Assembly (NCBI GenBank): GCA_018662075.1
Contig: JABJGX010000090.1
Location: 1-38,831 of the forward strand
Direction of reading: 5' to 3'
Length of the DNA: 38,831 nucleotides
Origin: Candidatus Peregrinibacteria bacterium
Lineage (GTDB): Bacteria > Patescibacteriota > Gracilibacteria > Peribacterales > Peribacteraceae
Made by a program: the position numbers and the translations under genes. Shown here piece after piece: positions 371 through 25,569 of the stretch (position 1 is its first letter; each line of letters begins with the position of its first letter). Below the pieces are notes generated by a model. It was not told the DNA's origin, searched no databases, and saw only the letters and a list, made by a program, of their open reading frames with translations.

Positions 371-2272
371 TTAAGATCCTTGTTTTTCATTATCCTCTGG
401 ACTGTCTTCTACGGGTGGCTTTGGAGTATTTGCCTCAAGAGGCTCAATGTCCTCTGCTTTTATGAAGGCTACAGGTTCATCCATGTCCTCAGGTTCGGGT
501 TCTGGAGCCTCTGTTTCCACTGGTATTTCATTCGGAGTCCCCGGTGTGGCAGAGCCATTCTCTTTACGGCTCTTTACGTTTTCCCTATACCGCTGCCTCT
601 TTTGTCTCTTCTTTTCGCGCTGCCTCTCTTTACGGTCAGCATCTGATGCCGTAGTTGTTGTCATAGACTCCTCTTTAGGAACATCCCCCTGGAGCTCTTC
701 TGGCGGAGGTGCATCCACGGTTTGTCCTACTTCCTCAGCTTTTTCGATACCACCTTGCAGCCAATCTGGTGCCTGAGTCGCGTCAGTAGCAAGTTTTTCA
801 GCAGCAGGTTCCATTGCAGTATGCGTTACATTTGGTGCCGGAGCTTCTGCTACCGGTTCTACAACTGGAGCAACTGCCTCTGGCTCAGGTATAGGTTCTG
901 CTACTGGTTCTGCTTTAGGTGCAAGCCACTCTGGTGCTGTAGTTGGCTCTGGTGATGGTGGAATAATTTCTGCTTCTACCACTGGGGCAGGAGTCACAAC
1001 TTCTGGTGCTGGACTCGCAACCGGTGTTTCGACTGGGGTTACTACAGTGGGTTCAGTGTGGATCTCCATTGGTGGAGCACTTTCTGCCACAGTTTCTTTT
1101 GGAGTCTTTACTATTGCACCCTCTGCTTTTTCCAAACTCTTTTCGAGTGAGAATCCTTTCTTCTTTACCTTACTAAAGATGAATATCCCAGCAGCACCGA
1201 CTGCAGCAGAAATAAGAAGGATAAGAATCAGCTTAAAAATGAGTCCCAAGATAGACCCACCATCAGATTTTTTCTTTTCAGGCTTTTTAGGATCTACTAC
1301 TTCTGGACCTGTTTCAGTTTCTTCTTTCATTCTGTTTATAACGATACTATCGGAAACGGTTGTCTGCACTTGTCCTGTTTTTAGATCTCGAATTTCTACA
1401 CTGATGTCATAATTTCCAGACTCTGCAAACATATGAATAGGCTTGTCGAGCATACTCTGTTGACCATCACCAAAGTTCCAGAGGAGCAGGACATTGCTTT
1501 TTACTTCGCTATCCATCTGAAGACCAAATTGCACTTCTCCATTATCACTTTTAAGCACTTGAATACGCATGCCATCTGGAGCCTCTTCTAGTGCTACATC
1601 TTCTCCATATTCACCACCTCTCCTAAAGGAAATATTTTCAAATTGAGTTTCATTGTTATCAAATAAGACACCAAGTCTCATTCCAGGAATTGTGCTATTT
1701 GCGATCCAGAGGTAGAGGGGATTTCCTTCAGACCGAAACAAAGTATTTTTTGTATCGTCATCATTTTCTGGATTTCCATCATTATTACTGTCACGACTTG
1801 TATCTGTATCAATAGCGATAACTTTGATATCTGTGCGCTCCGGCGAAATTTTGATGACATCTGTGCTTCGGCCAAGAGCAATAGTTCCATTCTGCATGGC
1901 AGGGATATATGTGGCGATGGCATTGGAATTCGTTGTGTTTTCCTCATAGCCTGGTTTTCTATCTAGGACAGAGAGGGTAAATGTCTTTCTGATGGCTTCA
2001 TTATTTACAGAAGTCTCTGCAGAGAGCTGAAAGCTTCCAGGCTGAGAAATACGTGTACGGAACACAGGGTCCCGGTTTGCCTCTATGAATTCACCATTCT
2101 GTGTAAGCACCCAGCTTGTCTTTCCAAGGCCACCAACACCCTGCATTTCAAAGATTCCACCAACAGGTACTGTCAGTACCTGTTGGCTTGTACCAAGCTG
2201 TGCAAGCACACCAGACCCTGCAATGGTTACCACTGCAAGAGCAGACGCGATAGAGGAGGTTCGAATATTCAT
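371..2272 (-). CDS. PKD-domain membrane-anchored surface protein with long Pro/Glu-rich cytoplasmic tail
   Basis: N-terminal hydrophobic signal; WNFGDG...PIHMFAESGNYDISVEI PKD motif; Asp-rich DTDTSRDSNNDG loop; TM helix then low-complexity tail. Start moved to ATG 2272 (TAATG overlap with pilin stop). Confidence 0.8.
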   Translation of the reverse strand: MNIRTSSIASALAVVTIAGSGVLAQLGTSQQVLTVPVGGIFEMQGVGGLGKTSWVLTQNGEFIEANRDPVFRTRISQPGSFQLSAETSVNNEAIRKTFTLSVLDRKPGYEENTTNSNAIATYIPAMQNGTIALGRSTDVIKISPERTDIKVIAIDTDTSRDSNNDGNPENDDDTKNTLFRSEGNPLYLWIANSTIPGMRLGVLFDNNETQFENISFRRGGEYGEDVALEEAPDGMRIQVLKSDNGEVQFGLQMDSEVKSNVLLLWNFGDGQQSMLDKPIHMFAESGNYDISVEIRDLKTGQVQTTVSDSIVINRMKEETETGPEVVDPKKPEKKKSDGGSILGLIFKLILILLISAAVGAAGIFIFSKVKKKGFSLEKSLEKAEGAIVKTPKETVAESAPPMEIHTEPTVVTPVETPVASPAPEVVTPAPVVEAEIIPPSPEPTTAPEWLAPKAEPVAEPIPEPEAVAPVVEPVAEAPAPNVTHTAMEPAAEKLATDATQAPDWLQGGIEKAEEVGQTVDAPPPEELQGDVPKEESMTTTTASDADRKERQREKKRQKRQRYRENVKSRKENGSATPGTPNEIPVETEAPEPEPEDMDEPVAFIKAEDIEPLEANTPKPPVEDSPEDNEKQGS

Positions 2273-2655
2273 TATTTTATTATTGAGGTAATGAGCCAAA
2301 CAATTGCGCTAGCAAATAGAATGATAATTAACCCAATGATCGTATAGAAAATAATTTTTTTCGCCTTGTCCTTAGTCGATTCCTCACCCCCACTTACGAC
2401 AAGCATGATGCCAGCAATGACAATAACAATCACAGCAACGAGGCCCATGTACGAAAGAACAAGACGTAAGAGGGCTAGTATAGTTAATCGCAAGTCTCCA
2501 TTGGAAATTCCAAGGATTGCTTGTGCCTGATCAATACCTCCAACAATTCCCGGTCCTTGATACACCTGAGCAATAACGACCTCTGGAAATATTCCAACAA
2601 GGAATCCAGTGACGATAGCAAGTAATACAGTAGGGGGCGCGAAGAGTTTTTTCAT
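2272..2655 (-). CDS. TrbC/VirB2-like pilin (CPR-type T4SS pilin family)
   Basis: 127 aa; signal then two TM helices with the family pattern IVIAGIMLVVSGGEESTKDKAKKIIFYTIIGLIIILFASAIV. Confidence 0.85.
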   Translation of the reverse strand: MKKLFAPPTVLLAIVTGFLVGIFPEVVIAQVYQGPGIVGGIDQAQAILGISNGDLRLTILALLRLVLSYMGLVAVIVIVIAGIMLVVSGGEESTKDKAKKIIFYTIIGLIIILFASAIVWLITSIIK

Positions 2656-2723
2656 GTATGTTTTTGTTATGTATGTTTCATACTATTATAGCTTATTCCG
2701 CTCTTCAGCGCTACCCTAAGGGC

Positions 2724-3716
2724 ATGAGACCAGACCGACTTCAGGTATTACTGGCAGATGCAAAAACAGATGCCTTTCTCGTTTCGAACCTTACAAATAT
2801 TTTGTACCTGTCTGGTGTGAGCGTAAGTGCTGGTTTTGTACTAATAAAAGCCAAAAAGTCTATATTATTTGTTGATGGTCGATATGCAGAGAAGGCAAAA
2901 GGCACTGTACGGAAGGGCATTTCAGTACTCGATATTGAGAAGATAGCTCAAGAGCTAAAAACAGTAAAAAACTGCGGCTTTGAGGCATCTGATGTAACAG
3001 TGGATAGACTTTCGAGGTGGAAGCGGAATTTCTTGAACACAAAATTTGTACAAAAAAAGGGAATAGTGGAAGAATATCGCAGAACAAAAGATAAAGATGA
3101 AATACGTCATTTTAAGAAGGCACAGCGGATAACCAATGATTTGATGACGAGGATTCCATCGTCACTAAAACAGGGGGTTACAGAAATGCAAATAGCCTGG
3201 ATGCTAGAGGCATTAGCAAGAGAGCTCGGGGCTGAGGGGCTCTCTTTTGATGCGATTGTTGGCTTTGGATCAAACTCATCACGGCCGCATCATAGCCCGA
3301 CAAATCGTAAGTTTAAGAAGGGTGATATGGTTCAAATCGATGTTGGTGCAAAGGTAAACGGGTACTGCGCAGATCAAAGCAGAGTATTTTTTACAGGGCC
3401 AAAGACTAAGCTACAAGAAAAGGTTTTTATAGCATTAGGTAGGGCTAAAAAGGAATCAGAAGCAGCGATAAAACCTGGGGTTACAAACCATGAGTTAGAC
3501 AAGATATCACGAAGTGTACTGAAGGAATATGACCTAGAGAAATACTTCATACATAGCCTTGGACACGGTGTAGGGCTAGATATCCATGAGGGGATTACGC
3601 TTTCGCAGAAGGCAAAAAAGACACCTCTACTGAAGAATGAAATCATAACCATAGAGCCAGGTGTCTACATCCCTGGAAAGTTTGGTATGAGGCTCGAAGA
3701 TGAGGTTATAGTATAG
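2724..3716 (+). CDS. Xaa-Pro aminopeptidase (peptidase M24B)
   Basis: Creatinase-N-like start (DAFLVSNLTNILYLSG), metal ligands IDVG..YCADQSR, HSLGHGVGLDIHE, TIEPGVY, GMRLEDEV; start likely ATG 2724. Confidence 0.93.
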   Translation: MRPDRLQVLLADAKTDAFLVSNLTNILYLSGVSVSAGFVLIKAKKSILFVDGRYAEKAKGTVRKGISVLDIEKIAQELKTVKNCGFEASDVTVDRLSRWKRNFLNTKFVQKKGIVEEYRRTKDKDEIRHFKKAQRITNDLMTRIPSSLKQGVTEMQIAWMLEALARELGAEGLSFDAIVGFGSNSSRPHHSPTNRKFKKGDMVQIDVGAKVNGYCADQSRVFFTGPKTKLQEKVFIALGRAKKESEAAIKPGVTNHELDKISRSVLKEYDLEKYFIHSLGHGVGLDIHEGITLSQKAKKTPLLKNEIITIEPGVYIPGKFGMRLEDEVIV

Positions 3717-20615: not shown

Positions 20616-22160
20616 ATGGCTTCACACCCAAGAAAATTCATCGCGCAACCAACAGAAGACGATTTGAAGAATTTGCCAGATGAAGTAAAACATTTGATCA
20701 AGAAAGGCCGAGAACAGCGTTATGTAACGCATCAAGAAATTATGTCCGTCGTGCCAATGGCAGAGGCGAATGTAGATTTACTTGATGATGTGTACTCTAT
20801 GCTTGTCGACCTTGGTATTCAGGTTATCGACGTAAAAGACGCTCTTATCTGGCAGAAGAAGCAAAAAGGAGGGCTGCAGATTCCAGAACCAACAGAGGAC
20901 TTAGGAGATATCTCTTCTACGGATGACGATGATGACGATATCGATTCTGATGATGAAGAGGAAGCGAGCACTGTTAGCAGCATGAAGTCAGATAAGGACG
21001 ACATGATGGACGTTGTTGCAACGGCTGGTATTGCCATTGATAAAACGAAGGAACAAACAGACGAAGAGCGTGGACGTCGTAAAAGAGAGCGCGAAGTGGA
21101 CTTGCTAGAGATTAGTAACGACTCAGTTCGTATGTATTTGAGCGAGATTGGACGTGTTCCATTGATCGATGCGAAGAAAGAAGTAGAACTTGCTCGTCGC
21201 ATCCGCAAAGGAGACGCATCAGCAAAGCAACAACTTGCAGAGGCAAACCTTCGATTGGTTGTTTCTATTGCAAAGAAGTACATTGGACGTGGTCTTTCAT
21301 TCCTCGATCTTATTCAAGAAGGAAACATTGGACTCTTCCGTGCTGTTGAAAAGTTCGATCCTGAACGTGGATTCAAATTCTCTACATATGCAACATGGTG
21401 GATCCGTCAGGCGATCACACGCGCCATTGCAGACCAAGCTCGTACAATTCGTATTCCTGTGCACATGGTGGAAACAATCAACAAGCTGACACACACTCAG
21501 CGTCGTTTAGTACAGGAGCTTGGACGTGAGCCAACAGTTGAAGAGCTAGCGGTAGAAATGGAGATGGATATCAAGAAAGTGCGACACATTCAGAAAATTT
21601 CACAGGATATCATCTCACTGGAGTCTCCAGTGGGATCTGAGGAAGACAGTAAGCTTGGTGACTTTATCGAGGATGAAGAGGCTGTAAACCCATTCGAGGC
21701 AACAAACAGGCAACTTAGAAAAGAAAATGTCCACTCTATGCTCGAATTCTTAACCCCTCGTGAGCGAAAGATTATCGAAATGCGATTTGGACTGGGTGAC
21801 GGTATCGGACACACTCTTGAAGAAGTTGGAAAAGAGTTTGGTGTTACTCGTGAGCGTATTCGACAGATCGAAGCGAAGGTTCTCCAGAAAATGCGAGATC
21901 ACCCACGTTCTATGACTATCCGTGAACATGGTGGAGCGCCAAAGCGTATTGGATTCTCTAACTCTACAAAGTATAACTCTGAAGAGTCTGCACAGTCTGG
22001 TGCATCATATGTCGACTTCATGCGAATGCTTGAGGAGGATATGAAGCGTAACGGAGATCCTTGTAAGAAATGTGGAAAGGGAACACTTGTACCACTCTCA
22101 AAAGAAGGTAAGAAGATCAACAAGTGTGACAGTTGCGCAGACGAAACAGACGTACTATAA
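20616..22160 (+). CDS. rpoD: Primary RNA polymerase sigma factor RpoD with C-terminal zinc-ribbon-like extension
   Basis: Region 1.1-like N-terminus, [73 protein letters not shown]; follows dnaG; start likely ATG 20616. Confidence 0.97.
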
Positions 22161-22190
22161 AAAAACACCCTCAGGAGAGGATGCTTTTTT
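22159..22190. terminator. Probable bidirectional intrinsic terminator between rpoD and DUF378 gene
   Basis: A-run, CACCCTC-AGGA-GAGGATG imperfect stem-loop, then T-run. Confidence 0.65.
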
Positions 22191-22204
22191 ACTATGTGCG
22201 AATA

Positions 22205-22411
22205 TTATTTACTGCACTTTGCGCCTCCTACAAGCTTTTTAACTCCTGCAAGACCGACAAGTACGTATACAACATCTTCTGCGTATGGAACGCTTCCGAG
22301 TAGCATGTGGACTACGTTAAGATCAGAACCAATAAGGTTTCCAAGGCCTACAAGACCCCAGTTAATAGCTCCGATAAGAATAAGGTAACCACAGATTTTA
22401 CAACAGTTCAT
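22205..22411 (-). CDS. DUF378 family small membrane protein
   Basis: LILIGAINWGLVGL...VVYVLVGLAG signature. Confidence 0.9.
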   Translation of the reverse strand: MNCCKICGYLILIGAINWGLVGLGNLIGSDLNVVHMLLGSVPYAEDVVYVLVGLAGVKKLVGGAKCSK

Positions 22412-22572: not shown

Positions 22573-25569
22573 ATGACCAAAATAAAGACGGCTCAGTCGG
22601 GACCTGCAACAAAAAATGCATTGCGAAAGCTTGTCACAAAAAATGACGAACACTTTGCAAAGGCATATGCAATACTCAATGAGCAACAGAAAATTGCTGT
22701 AGATACAACGGATGGGCCTGTCATGGTGGTCGCCGGACCGGGGACAGGAAAGACACAGGTTTTAGCGCTTCGTACTGCCAATATATTACGGAGCACTCAG
22801 ATGAAACCGGGGAATATTCTCTGTCTTACATTTAGCAAAAGCGGGGCGACTGCAATGAGAAATCGCTTGCGAGAGATCATCGGGCCCGATGCATATGGGG
22901 TAACAGTAAATACCATTCATGGCTTTTGTAATGACATTATCGTGTCCAACCCAACTGTTTTTGAGCAGTGGTCATCCATGGAACAAATTAGTGATGTAGA
23001 GCGCTTTAGAAGCTTGAACAAAATAATTGATCAACTACTTCCGGGGCTGGCTATTGTAAACGCAAAGTCACCATATATGAGAACGAAAGACATACTTGGT
23101 CGAATGTCTGAAATAAAGCGTGAGGGGGTGTCAGATCCAGCAGATCTGTATCGCATTGCAGATGAATATGCAGAGATCATGGCACATAAAAGTAAAGAGG
23201 GGACGAAGGTGCATAAAAGAAACCTTCTTGCTGCAGTAAAGTTCCGTGAACTCATCGATATTTATTGTAAGTATCAAGAAATGCTAAAGGCTACAGGACG
23301 ATATGACTATGAAGATATGATCTTAAACGTTATCAAGGCGTTAAAAGAAGAGGATTGGCTTCTAGCATCGTTGCAGGAAAGGTACCAGTACATACTTGTC
23401 GATGAATTTCAGGATACCAATGGATCTCAGTACGAACTCATAGAACTTCTTAGTACAGACCCAACGGCAGACAGTAAGCCAAATATTTTTGTAGTAGGGG
23501 ATGACGATCAGGCAATATATCGCTTTCAAGGTGCGAATCTTAAAAATATTCTCTCATTCAGAGAACGGTTTGCCAAAGCTCCAGTTATTACACTGACACA
23601 GAGCTACAGGTGTACTCAGCCAATACTGGATGCTGCAGAAAACTTGATATCACAAAACACAGAACGCCTTGTGGGAAAGATAGAAGGCATGGATAAGCAC
23701 TTAGTTGCAGCAGCTCAGGAAGGAGGAACCCCGCCAGTACTCCTGGTAAGCGCAAGTGATATGAGTGAGCCATGGATGATTGCAGATCTAGTCGAAGAGC
23801 GAACCCGAGAGAGGGTAGATCCATCAGAGATTGCAGTACTGGTACAAACCAACAGAGAACTTTTAACATTGTACGATGTCTTTAAGGCACGCAGTATCCC
23901 ATCCGTTCTATCTGGAAAGCTAGACTTACTGTCACATCCTCTTGTCAGTCAGGCGATTGCAATACTTCAAGCAATAGACACGCCAAAGGATAATATGGTT
24001 GCAAATGCACTATCGTGTGAATGTTTTGGCTGTCATCCCGCAGATCTTGCAGAAGTATTTGCAAAGGCACGTGAAGAAAAGGCGAGCATTGTCAATATTC
24101 TTCTAGGATTTGATAAGGAGGACAGTACTATTTCCCTGAGAAATCCAGAGAGAATCCTCTCAGCACGAGACTGCTTCTTGCAGCTGCAGCTTAATGCAGA
24201 GCGTCGAACAGTTATCGAAACACTTGAGCATTTATATAGGGATACTGGTCTTCTAGAAAACATGGAAAAAGGACACATGGACATCGTGGACTTCGCAGCA
24301 GCAACAGAGTTCTTTGACCGCGTAAAACAACGTGCATATGAACAGCCTCAGTTTGGTTTCAAAGAATTCCTCAATGACATAGAATATTATACAAACCCAG
24401 ATTACGGCAGTCTTCGACTAACGTATGATCTTCCACACCTTACAGAGTCTGGAGTACAGCTTATGACTGCTCATAAGAGTAAAGGGCTAGAGTTCCACAC
24501 AGTGATCATTTCCAACTTCAGAGAGGGGCACTGGGACAAAAGAAGAAATCCGCCATCGGTCGCAGTACCAGAAGACTTGATGTTTGGGTGGGAGAAAGAC
24601 CAAAAGAGTTATGAAAAAAATCAAGATGAACGAAGGGTTGCATTTGTGGCTATGACTAGGGCTAAACGAGAATTAATATTTACATGCCCACACGAACTTA
24701 CTTCAGGGGATAGTACAAAAACAGTCGCACCTTCGGGCTTCTTTGCAGAGTCGGGTGACCTTCCAGAAGAGCACAGAGAAGTAGAGCATCCAGAGCAAAT
24801 GTCGACCCTGCTACAAGTACCACCAAGAGAGTTCGATGCAGAATTCGAAACATTCCTTCGGCGTCGCATAGAACATTTCTCCTTGTCGCCCACGTCGCTC
24901 AATCATTTTTTGGAAGATCCTCTCATGTTCTTGGAATTAGACTTGTTACAACGTCCCCAGGCAAAGCAGCCACACTTCGCTTATGGAAATGCTATTCACC
25001 ACGTGATGGCAAAATGGGCAGATGGTGTGTCATCTGGCAGTCCGCTTTCTATGAAAGAAGGAGTGGACCTCTTCACCGAGCATCTTAATCAAAAAGAACT
25101 ATTGACCAATAATGAACGTGATCGTCTCACACATTTGGGCATCAATACATTGACTCGGTATTTTGAAACATCACTCATACCACCATATCCAGTCATTCAC
25201 AAAGTGGAGTTCGGTATTAATGCACGTATCGGAGACATCCCAATTAAAGGAAAAATCGACCGTATAGATTTAATGGAACCAAACTCGACATCTGCGATTA
25301 TCATTGACTTTAAAACCGGAAAGCCAAAGACAGAAAAACAGATTGTTGACTACGGGTACTTTCGCCAGCTTGTATTTTACGGAGTACTTATTGAAGCAGG
25401 ATACGGAATGCTTCAACCCAAGGAATACATCTTAGACTTTGTGGGAGAGTCAGAGCTTGACCCCATTCAGCGTCGATTCACGGTATCAGAACAGGATAAA
25501 ATAGAGCTAAAACAGGTGATAGAAGCAGTCTGGACAAAGATACTTGCACTGGATTTCACACCAGTCTAA
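22573..25569 (+). CDS. UvrD/PcrA-family SF1A helicase fused to C-terminal PD-(D/E)XK nuclease
   Basis: LNEQQ, AGPGTGKT, LVDEFQD, VGDDDQAIYRFQGA, SYRC, TAHKSKGLEF, ERRVAFVAMTRAK; C-terminal LSPTSL...KGKIDRID...IDFKTG...QLVFY. Confidence 0.95.
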   Translation: MTKIKTAQSGPATKNALRKLVTKNDEHFAKAYAILNEQQKIAVDTTDGPVMVVAGPGTGKTQVLALRTANILRSTQMKPGNILCLTFSKSGATAMRNRLREIIGPDAYGVTVNTIHGFCNDIIVSNPTVFEQWSSMEQISDVERFRSLNKIIDQLLPGLAIVNAKSPYMRTKDILGRMSEIKREGVSDPADLYRIADEYAEIMAHKSKEGTKVHKRNLLAAVKFRELIDIYCKYQEMLKATGRYDYEDMILNVIKALKEEDWLLASLQERYQYILVDEFQDTNGSQYELIELLSTDPTADSKPNIFVVGDDDQAIYRFQGANLKNILSFRERFAKAPVITLTQSYRCTQPILDAAENLISQNTERLVGKIEGMDKHLVAAAQEGGTPPVLLVSASDMSEPWMIADLVEERTRERVDPSEIAVLVQTNRELLTLYDVFKARSIPSVLSGKLDLLSHPLVSQAIAILQAIDTPKDNMVANALSCECFGCHPADLAEVFAKAREEKASIVNILLGFDKEDSTISLRNPERILSARDCFLQLQLNAERRTVIETLEHLYRDTGLLENMEKGHMDIVDFAAATEFFDRVKQRAYEQPQFGFKEFLNDIEYYTNPDYGSLRLTYDLPHLTESGVQLMTAHKSKGLEFHTVIISNFREGHWDKRRNPPSVAVPEDLMFGWEKDQKSYEKNQDERRVAFVAMTRAKRELIFTCPHELTSGDSTKTVAPSGFFAESGDLPEEHREVEHPEQMSTLLQVPPREFDAEFETFLRRRIEHFSLSPTSLNHFLEDPLMFLELDLLQRPQAKQPHFAYGNAIHHVMAKWADGVSSGSPLSMKEGVDLFTEHLNQKELLTNNERDRLTHLGINTLTRYFETSLIPPYPVIHKVEFGINARIGDIPIKGKIDRIDLMEPNSTSAIIIDFKTGKPKTEKQIVDYGYFRQLVFYGVLIEAGYGMLQPKEYILDFVGESELDPIQRRFTVSEQDKIELKQVIEAVWTKILALDFTPV

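Follow-up and report, generated by a model that had tools for sequence, protein, structure and literature searches.

A primary sigma factor with a family-conserved C-terminal tail and a predicted zinc ribbon in Peribacteraceae

The 38,831-nt stretch of DNA analyzed here (contig JABJGX010000090.1, referred to below as the window) belongs to a bacterium of the family Peribacteraceae (Peregrinibacteria, Candidate Phyla Radiation or CPR) and carries rpoD, the gene of a complete group 1 (primary, RpoD-type) sigma factor. The reading frame of this gene continues beyond sigma region 4.2 into a C-terminal tail that is predicted to end in a C4 zinc ribbon. Comparative genomics showed that the tail is kept throughout the family and lacking in the related bacteria sampled, and that purifying selection maintains it. 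Most likely, the tail is a built-in helper that grips RNA polymerase (RNAP) or the neighboring promoter DNA.

Few architectures in bacteria are as conserved as that of primary sigma factors, whose textbook picture includes no additions past region 4.2. What is new here is a canonical housekeeping sigma with a lineage-specific, putative zinc-ribbon accessory. A ribbon that a CPR family has retained throughout its history on its one housekeeping sigma would place an extra module in every promoter complex; in addition, the tail provides a clean sequence marker for the family. A search of the full-text literature, subscription journals and supplements excluded, found no zinc ribbon or folded domain past region 4.2 of a primary sigma factor and, in the portions of the sources available, turned up only sigma factors of the extracytoplasmic function (ECF) group with C-terminal extensions.

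The tail of RpoD and its retention in the family

Regions 1.1, 1.2, 2, 3, and 4 of the rpoD product are recognized by PF03979, PF00140, PF04542, PF04539, and PF04545, respectively, all above the Pfam cutoffs, and the protein scores 372.8 bits against TIGR02393 (RpoD_Cterm; cutoff 354). Its scores against the full-length NCBIfam equivalogs fall below the cutoffs (478 versus 555 for NF004208, and 472 versus 572 for NF006666), as expected for a divergent lineage. It is the only group 1 sigma matched in the assembly (879 kb, 86.5% complete), and dnaG lies directly upstream, in a dnaG-rpoD arrangement. Two other frames of the sigma-70 family, both of ECF size (210 and 182 aa), are located elsewhere in the genome (C39:36472-36912 and C25:2848-3300, both on the - strand). 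The Pfam match for region 4 ends at residue 427 and every NCBIfam RpoD model ends at residue 437, leaving residues 438-514, or 77 in-frame residues, with no assigned family. The gene and the parts of its tail are as follows.

20616..22160, + strand: rpoD, group 1 housekeeping sigma-70 factor, 514 aa plus stop (Pfam and NCBIfam)
21741..21896, + strand: sigma region 4 (residues 376-427), the -35-binding helix-turn-helix that bears the tail (PF04545)
21912..22157, + strand: C-terminal tail M433-L514, 82 aa, with residues 438-514 past every RpoD model
21918..21956, + strand: proximal motif I435-R436-E437...K443-R444-x-G446-F447, 13 aa
21957..22007, + strand: Ser-rich low-complexity linker S448-S464 (predicted local distance difference test score, pLDDT, 51-57)
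22008..22049, + strand: predicted acidic amphipathic helix Y465-R478, 14 aa (AlphaFold2)
22062..22136, + strand: core of the predicted C4 zinc ribbon, CxxC-x17-CxxC, C483-C507, 25 aa; the modeled folded domain extends to about residue 512 (22151)
22158-22160, + strand: stop codon of rpoD (from the translation)

The order of these parts, namely, motif, Ser-rich linker, amphipathic helix, and C4 motif, had been read from the bare DNA in an initial annotation of the window and holds on translation; the position given there for the C4 motif, 22062-22136, is exact. The four Cys residues of the ribbon are C483, C486, C504, and C507 (spacing x2, x17, x2), and seven acidic or neutral residues separate the last of them from the stop codon. 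The Ser-rich linker varies in both sequence and length within the genus, and linker and helix are missing from the short-form tails of other genera. The acidic helix is kept within the genus, and a comparable helix terminates the tails that have no ribbon.

A word-seeded protein search with residues 425-514 as the query returned 77 proteins, all of which are sigma-sized or fragments of such proteins, and the named ones are RpoD of Candidatus Peribacteraceae, Peribacter, Peribacteria, or Peregrinibacteria. The complete CxxC-x17-CxxC motif is present in 58 of them; a further 18 have the proximal motif but an acidic helix or a short stretch replacing the ribbon, and one is truncated past the first knuckle. 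Among whole genomes, for which membership of relatives in the Peribacteraceae was taken from the match names, the ribbon is in frame at 22 of 23 RpoD loci of the family. By comparison, RpoD ends 4-6 residues past HPTS/HPAA at all seven loci examined (7/7) from other families of the same class, in agreement with the statement of the initial annotation that group 1 sigma factors end just past region 4.2. The single exception within the family (G023; L017, G023:C26:1-3040) encodes an RpoD that is ~84% identical up to RIRQIEAK and then has a generic bacterial RpoD end. The switch falls inside region 4.2, 220-310 nt from the end of the contig, in a genome with 5% contamination, and this RpoD end is probably that of a chimeric contig.

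A profile of the tail, A1, was built from 22 tails and applied to a class sample consisting of 65 family genomes (the window's own, G000, included) and 336 genomes of at least 39 other families. All family genomes were matched (65/65), 60 of them from profile position 1 to at least position 55, in comparison with only two weak partial matches among the 336 genomes of other families. Likewise, in a phylum sample the profile matched 12/12 family genomes and gave eight weak, ribbon-only matches among 389 others. No tail equivalent to that of the family was found with profile A1 in the 336 other-family class genomes or the 389 other phylum genomes, and a search of the remainder of the window's genome gave no second match outside rpoD. 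Every match in a family genome lies within an open frame of 467-679 aa, except that of G411, which is cut by contig ends; three matches that had been flagged for an internal stop merely overrun natural stop codons. These comparisons indicate that the tail is not a fusion artefact. The initial annotation had allowed that the Cys residues might not be conserved, or that the tail might be a separate open reading frame (ORF) in relatives; neither is the case, since all four Cys are invariant in 22/22 aligned tails and the tail stands in the sigma frame in every relative examined. A library of 1.84 billion proteins that was also searched contains 50%-identity representatives, with the full-length RpoDs of the family inside general RpoD clusters; comparable sigma fusions may exist in other phyla.

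Besides the four Cys, all aligned tails (22/22) share residues G57, G66, K71, D73, and A76 (tail numbering), and the 25-residue CxxC-x17-CxxC core has exactly the same spacing in 56/56 distinct ribbon tails. The proximal motif is conserved more widely: I435, R436, E437, K443, R444, G446, and F447 do not vary across a full-length alignment of 67 sequences, ribbon-less variants among them. The least conserved part of the tail is formed by the residues past the last Cys. Relative to its nearest relative, the tail has a nonsynonymous divergence (dN) of 0.048 and an omega of 0.03, with a synonymous divergence (dS) of 1.56; synonymous sites are saturated even in comparisons with the nearest relative (dS ~1.4-1.6). 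Within the genus, dN is ~0.25 for the tail versus ~0.02 for regions 2-4, so that the tail is constrained, though about tenfold less strongly than the body of sigma.

The composition of the tail differs among genera. In the genus of the window it consists of the motif, the Ser-rich linker, the acidic helix, and the ribbon, and in most other genera of the motif, ~8 residues, and the ribbon. Three sampled genera (G376, G239, and G095) have the motif and the acidic helix with no ribbon. In one further genus (G280; L105, G280:C7:229521-233633), the ribbon is kept and KRxGF is replaced by a Gly-rich linker with a short helix-like EELLQALQ stretch, which would make this genus a naturally occurring mutant in which the two modules are uncoupled.

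Predicted fold and nearest kin of the ribbon

In the AlphaFold2 model of the isolated tail, the first 30 residues are disordered (pLDDT 51-59), a helix covers tail residues 33-46 (residues 465-477 in the full-length model), and the ribbon is folded into three beta-strands (tail residues 58-64, 67-72, and 78-80) with pLDDT 86-88. The proximal motif is modeled as disordered; its pLDDT is below 60 when the tail is modeled alone and below 50 when the full-length protein is. As modeled, the tail ends in a generic three-stranded C4 zinc ribbon, with a fold that is no more specific than that, and zinc would have a structural role in it.

Foldseek, one of the checks suggested by the initial annotation, gave no match of the tail model to the PDB at E <=0.001, although VIA-align superposed the ribbon on solved zinc ribbons at 1.2-1.7 A over 33-35 residues; all Z scores were <=2.8, since the ribbon is only about 35 residues long. 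The best superposition was on domain D7 of topoisomerase I in an RNAP-TopoI complex (9gda_F; 1.2 A over 33 residues, 24% identity, Z 2.0). Others were on the N-terminal ribbons of Rpb9 and C11 (1.3-1.7 A over 33-35 residues), MqsA (1.5 A over 35 residues), NrdR, and a 34-residue chain of a Pol III complex.

At the level of sequence families, PF13453 (Zn_ribbon_TFIIB) gave weak matches to 20/22 tails (best E 1.9e-5) and none at E <=1 to the tail of the window. PF01396 (Zn_ribbon_Top1) matched 8/22 tails, all below its 32-bit gathering cutoff (best E 0.0041), and again the window's own tail was not matched by it at E <=1. That tail scored 13.6 bits (E 0.042) against TIGR04272, a CxxC-x17-CxxC domain, by its first knuckle only and below the 36-bit cutoff, and gave E 0.15 against PF23477. 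A sequence search of the PDB with the profile retrieved only knuckles at chance level, namely, a C2H2 finger (0.018), MqsA (0.46), and Thermus L24 (0.53), and the ESM Atlas gave no usable match to the tail.

The profile search of the 1.84 billion representatives gave 24 matches, comprising five C-terminal fragments of the same RpoDs, six topoisomerase I proteins with several ribbons, seven eukaryote-type C2H2 arrays, and six miscellaneous proteins; no free-standing family was present among them. The C2H2 arrays are taken as noise on the KCDxC knuckle. Five of the eight weak non-family matches in the phylum sample lie in frames of 737-757 aa, and three of these frames, read by eye, have four topoisomerase-type Cys ribbons at the end; the third ribbon starts with CPKCxKGE[LI][VI], like the sigma ribbon, and closes with C-x5-C. 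By these comparisons, the closest non-sigma sequence kin of the ribbon are the C-terminal ribbons of topoisomerase I. The sigma ribbon and the topoisomerase I ribbons (PF01396) have the first knuckle and strand, CPxCxxGx[LM][VI], in common. They differ in the second knuckle, which is C-x5-C in the CPR ribbons that were read and CxxC in the sigma tail, and in arrangement, as the topoisomerase ribbons form a tandem array whereas the sigma tail has a single copy with no conserved aromatics.

The genome's own TopA (C60:~1100-3504, - strand, 800 aa) has no CxxC motif and instead carries Cys-less GR[FY]GPYI repeats and a Lys/Ala-rich end. An origin of the ribbon as a copy from this topA gene was considered and rejected, given the lack of CxxC in its product and of any other profile A1 match in the genome.

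Possible contacts of the tail with RNA polymerase and promoter DNA

The tail is tentatively proposed to be a cis-tethered initiation accessory that leads from region 4 to the zinc-binding domain (ZBD) and zipper of the beta' subunit and to the adjacent promoter DNA; the chance of this reading being right is put somewhat short of even. Under this proposal, the tail would begin where region 4 ends (region 4 is positioned on the -35 element, next to the beta' ZBD), and its KRxGF segment and ribbon would reach the neighboring ZBD and zipper as well as the promoter DNA running past. A second sigma-core (possibly also sigma-DNA) anchor would thereby be added, stabilizing holoenzyme-promoter complexes, which is the job done in trans by RbpA in Actinobacteria. 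In the available text of Hubin et al. 2017 (PMC5302886), the beta' ZBD is described as contacting sigma region 4 and the zipper as contacting region 3, and the RbpA core domain as making extensive contacts with both, with a basic linker touching the backbone of the DNA. A review likewise states, in the part available, that RbpA ties sigma to the core via the beta' ZBD (PMC7403470).

The beta' subunit itself offers a second line of evidence. Within its residues 15-140, QRAEP is found in 22/23 family members (QRPDP in the remaining one) versus QKPE[RT] in 6/6 others, FQC in 23/23 family members versus [WY]EC in others, and KYKG in 23/23 versus KYK[RK] in others. When a switched column was defined as one that is invariant outside the family and at least 90% different inside, 3/346 columns of beta' were switched in the family, two of the three being in the zipper/ZBD, and 1/370 columns of beta. 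The beta flap was also considered as a co-evolved partner of the tail and was rejected, as no column separated 19 family sequences from 10 others in a 230-residue flap segment. An accessory module, as suggested in the initial annotation, remains the best reading, and the leads favor the beta' ZBD/zipper over the site near the beta flap and RNA exit channel where that annotation had placed it.

The third line is docking of the tail to beta' residues 15-140 with two Zn, which gave an interaction prediction score from aligned errors (ipSAE) of 0.42 (runs 0.42, 0.43, and 0.40), compared to 0.00 for the highest-scoring of three controls. The runs share at least 36% of their contacts, and pLDDT of the partner is at least 58. 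The mark was reached by 116/157 solved complexes and 2/215 mismatched pairs in calibration, a rough guide given the custom alignments and riding zinc; it was reached at scores of <=0.60, however, by only 18 of the 157 solved complexes and by both of the passing mismatches. The docking verdict is weak support; a pass of this kind is wrong in the majority of cases, except where the pairing was already likely on prior grounds. The surface of the ribbon is hydrophobic at four of five consecutive strand positions ([LM][VI]x[LVI][TIV]) and has no conserved aromatic residue, suggesting that contact with a protein would fit better than base stacking of the topoisomerase type. Together, geometry, the beta' substitutions, and docking make a cis contact with the beta' ZBD/zipper and promoter DNA the best single reading.

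Several observations weigh against it. Besides the weakness of the docking pass, the beta' substitutions are fixed family-wide, including the three ribbon-less genera and G280, which has no KRxGF; being shared by these, the substitutions track phylogeny and cannot be assigned to one module or the other. As a single clade, the family represents one evolutionary event, and the lack of the ribbon in 3/65 genomes indicates that it is dispensable. The net charge of the ribbon core is only +1.7 on average (range -2 to +5), so that contact of the ribbon with DNA is not obviously favored. The full-length AlphaFold2 model, built from the 67-sequence alignment, is poor (mean pLDDT 56, and below 50 for residues 432-465) and neither shows nor excludes a fold-back of the tail; no docking is visible in it. 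Finally, the tail is unrelated to RbpA in sequence, and the RbpA family PF13397 was found in 0/41 relatives.

RbpA of Streptomyces binds zinc. The analogy proposed here with the RbpA of Actinobacteria is that of a small beta-rich domain on the beta' ZBD/zipper near region 4, combined with a basic segment touching DNA, as described for RbpA in the available text of two articles (PMC5302886, PMC7403470). The differences are that RbpA is a separate protein that holds sigma region 2 via its sigma-interacting domain (SID), whereas the module described here is fused to region 4, that the order of elements is reversed, and that the tail has no PF13397 match. Two explanations by substitution were rejected. 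Replacement of a lost alpha C-terminal domain is contradicted by the presence of PF03118 in 41/41 genomes. Compensation for a loss of RbpA/CarD confined to the family is contradicted by the finding of RbpA in 0/41 genomes, with a search that detected PF13397 in the control, Corynebacterium; the CarD_TRCF domain occurs only in Mfd-sized frames (738-1135 aa), inside the family and outside alike.

In archaea and eukaryotes, the B-ribbon of TFIIB/TFB docks on the polymerase near the RNA exit, roughly where sigma region 4 sits in bacteria. Like the sigma tail, TFIIB/TFB is an initiation factor bearing a C4 zinc ribbon, and the tail ribbon superposes on polymerase-associated ribbons. The B-ribbon is N-terminal, in contrast to the C-terminal ribbon of the tail, which is borne by a sigma-70 protein unrelated to TFIIB. 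The likeness of the tail to TFIIB appears to be that of a generic zinc-ribbon fold. A bolder form of the proposal would make the tail both a cis RbpA and the bacterial counterpart of the TFIIB B-ribbon: a clamp-anchor on the beta' ZBD/zipper that co-evolved with near-invariant beta' residues (KPER to RAEP, EC to QC, and KYKR to KYKG), on the first primary sigma factor with its own extra core-binding domain, where modular loss or replacement tunes the stability of promoter complexes in reduced genomes with few transcription factors. This fuller version is a real possibility, albeit a doubtful one. Should the module tether sigma to the beta' clamp or to DNA, it would represent a new way to stabilize initiation complexes in cells with minimal regulatory repertoires, a natural cis version of RbpA-type factors, and a convergent parallel to the archaeal/eukaryotic TFB/TFIIB ribbon.

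Among the alternatives, the one that survives best, although unlikely, is that the tail binds nucleic acid and makes no contact with the core. KRxGF would then lie in the DNA groove upstream of or beside the -35 element, and the ribbon on duplex, fork-junction, or single-stranded promoter DNA or on nascent RNA, extending the sigma footprint. The kinship with topoisomerase I described above (nearest non-sigma kin, 6/24 library matches, best superposition on D7, and five of eight weak phylum matches in frames of topoisomerase type where read) points in this direction. Topoisomerase I ribbons act at RNAP, where they bind DNA at the bubble's upstream edge and contribute to RNAP binding. Specifically, D7 is described as binding single-stranded non-template DNA at that edge via basic and aromatic residues in the available text of one study (10.1101/2024.10.07.617030), and TopoI as contacting RNAP through its C-terminal domain (CTD) and Zn-binding domain in that of another (PMC9352719). 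The invariance of K443/R444, the conservation of ribbon residues K6, K14, and K21, and a charge of +3 for the segment before the ribbon in most short-form tails are also consistent with nucleic-acid binding. On the other hand, the topoisomerase ribbons use aromatic as well as basic residues (10.1101/2024.10.07.617030, in the part available), whereas the sigma ribbon has no conserved aromatic and carries a low net charge that is negative in some cases; the post-ribbon residues and the helix of the genus are acidic, and three genera swap the ribbon for an acidic helix that is incapable of DNA binding. A crude screen of 331 upstream regions, based on rough gene calls, gave 39 consensus matches of at least 10/12 versus 13 in one shuffle, with uninformative hexamer enrichment; no clear extra upstream promoter element was detected in these regions by this method, which is too coarse to exclude one.

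Less probable still is a role as a regulatory handle, in which the tail would be a dock for a lineage-specific trans-acting protein (an activator, an anti-sigma-like factor, a topoisomerase, or a primase) or would fold back as an autoinhibitor of free sigma in the manner of region 1.1. An invariant short motif in a disordered segment is typical of contacts between a peptide and a domain, and the interchangeability of the distal module (ribbon, acidic helix, or both) would suit a recruitment or masking element; an acidic helix beside region 4 could, for instance, mask its basic DNA-binding face. No candidate partner emerged, however, and the neighboring genes are ordinary. The full-length model has no fold-back, though it is too poor to count, and, as the docking controls show, an unrelated protein of comparable size is not bound by the tail.

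A metal or redox sensor, or an element of stability or turnover, is improbable. Here, oxidation of Cys or loss of zinc would alter the activity or half-life of sigma, as in zinc-binding anti-sigma (ZAS) domains and some Cys-rich extensions of ECF sigmas. Four invariant Cys on a solvent-exposed mini-domain would be compatible with sensing, and on-board Cys-rich sensors do exist on ECF sigmas, according to the available text of PMC9023288. Nevertheless, CPxC and GxG knuckles in a CxxC-x17-CxxC arrangement are characteristic of structural zinc ribbons. The tail, with its predicted zinc site, and the ZAS domains both combine zinc and Cys in a sigma context, but the latter have an HxxxCxxC motif and a helical fold, in contrast to the predicted beta ribbon of the tail, in whose sequence HxxxCxxC was looked for and is absent. 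Group 4 (ECF) sigmas likewise resemble the case described here in having a C-terminal module past region 4 that modulates activity, as far as described in the available text of three sources (PMC7826278, PMC9023288, 10.1101/2020.01.30.927608); they differ as alternative two-domain sigmas with on-board regulators or sensors from a full-length housekeeping sigma with a family-conserved zinc ribbon. The low conservation of the extreme C terminus, past the last Cys, argues against a C-terminal degron and thus disfavors the degradation tag that the initial annotation had raised.

Finally, an artefact or neutral appendage, that is, a small downstream ORF joined to rpoD through stop-loss or misassembly, or a remnant with no function, has next to no probability as judged from the sequence data: the ordinary RpoD end of G023 lies near a contig end with its switch inside the most conserved stretch, the short tail-only "proteins" of 37-128 aa in the protein library either retain remnants of region 4 (two entries) or begin at internal residues of the same tail, and both the sigma-sized frames with their natural stops and the strong purifying selection on the tail speak against it.

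Neighboring genes and other features of the polymerase genes

In addition to dnaG, the neighbors of rpoD are a DUF378 gene and a gene for a UvrD-type helicase-nuclease, none of them out of the ordinary. The features downstream of the rpoD coding region are as follows.

22158..22191, + strand: stop codon and weak A-run/T-run hairpin between the convergent genes
22205-22411, - strand: DUF378 membrane protein, 68 aa, convergent with rpoD
22573-25569, + strand: UvrD-type helicase fused to a PD-(D/E)XK nuclease, AddB/PcrA-like architecture, 998 aa

The terminator that the initial annotation had placed after the sigma stop is only partly borne out, as the hairpin at 22158-22191 at the rpoD 3' end is modest (-9.3 kcal/mol, z -2.3, with 5/200 shuffles as stable) and a scan for consensus terminators downstream of the stop called none.

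In the genome of the window, rpoB (C20:85-3951, L035, 1289 aa) has a ~70-residue Lys/Ala-rich, histone H1-like repeat of the AKKA type before its conserved body, which may be a second lineage-specific, DNA-binding-looking addition to the RNA polymerase of this bacterium. In the family, rpoB and rpoC are on different contigs or far apart, as in the window's genome (C20 versus C59) and in three relatives (G007, C1 144 kb versus C2 374 kb; G017, C3 versus C2; G008, C1 versus C4), whereas in 11 genomes from elsewhere in the class, outside the family, the two genes are adjacent on a single contig. The rpoBC operon thus appears to be split in the Peribacteraceae.

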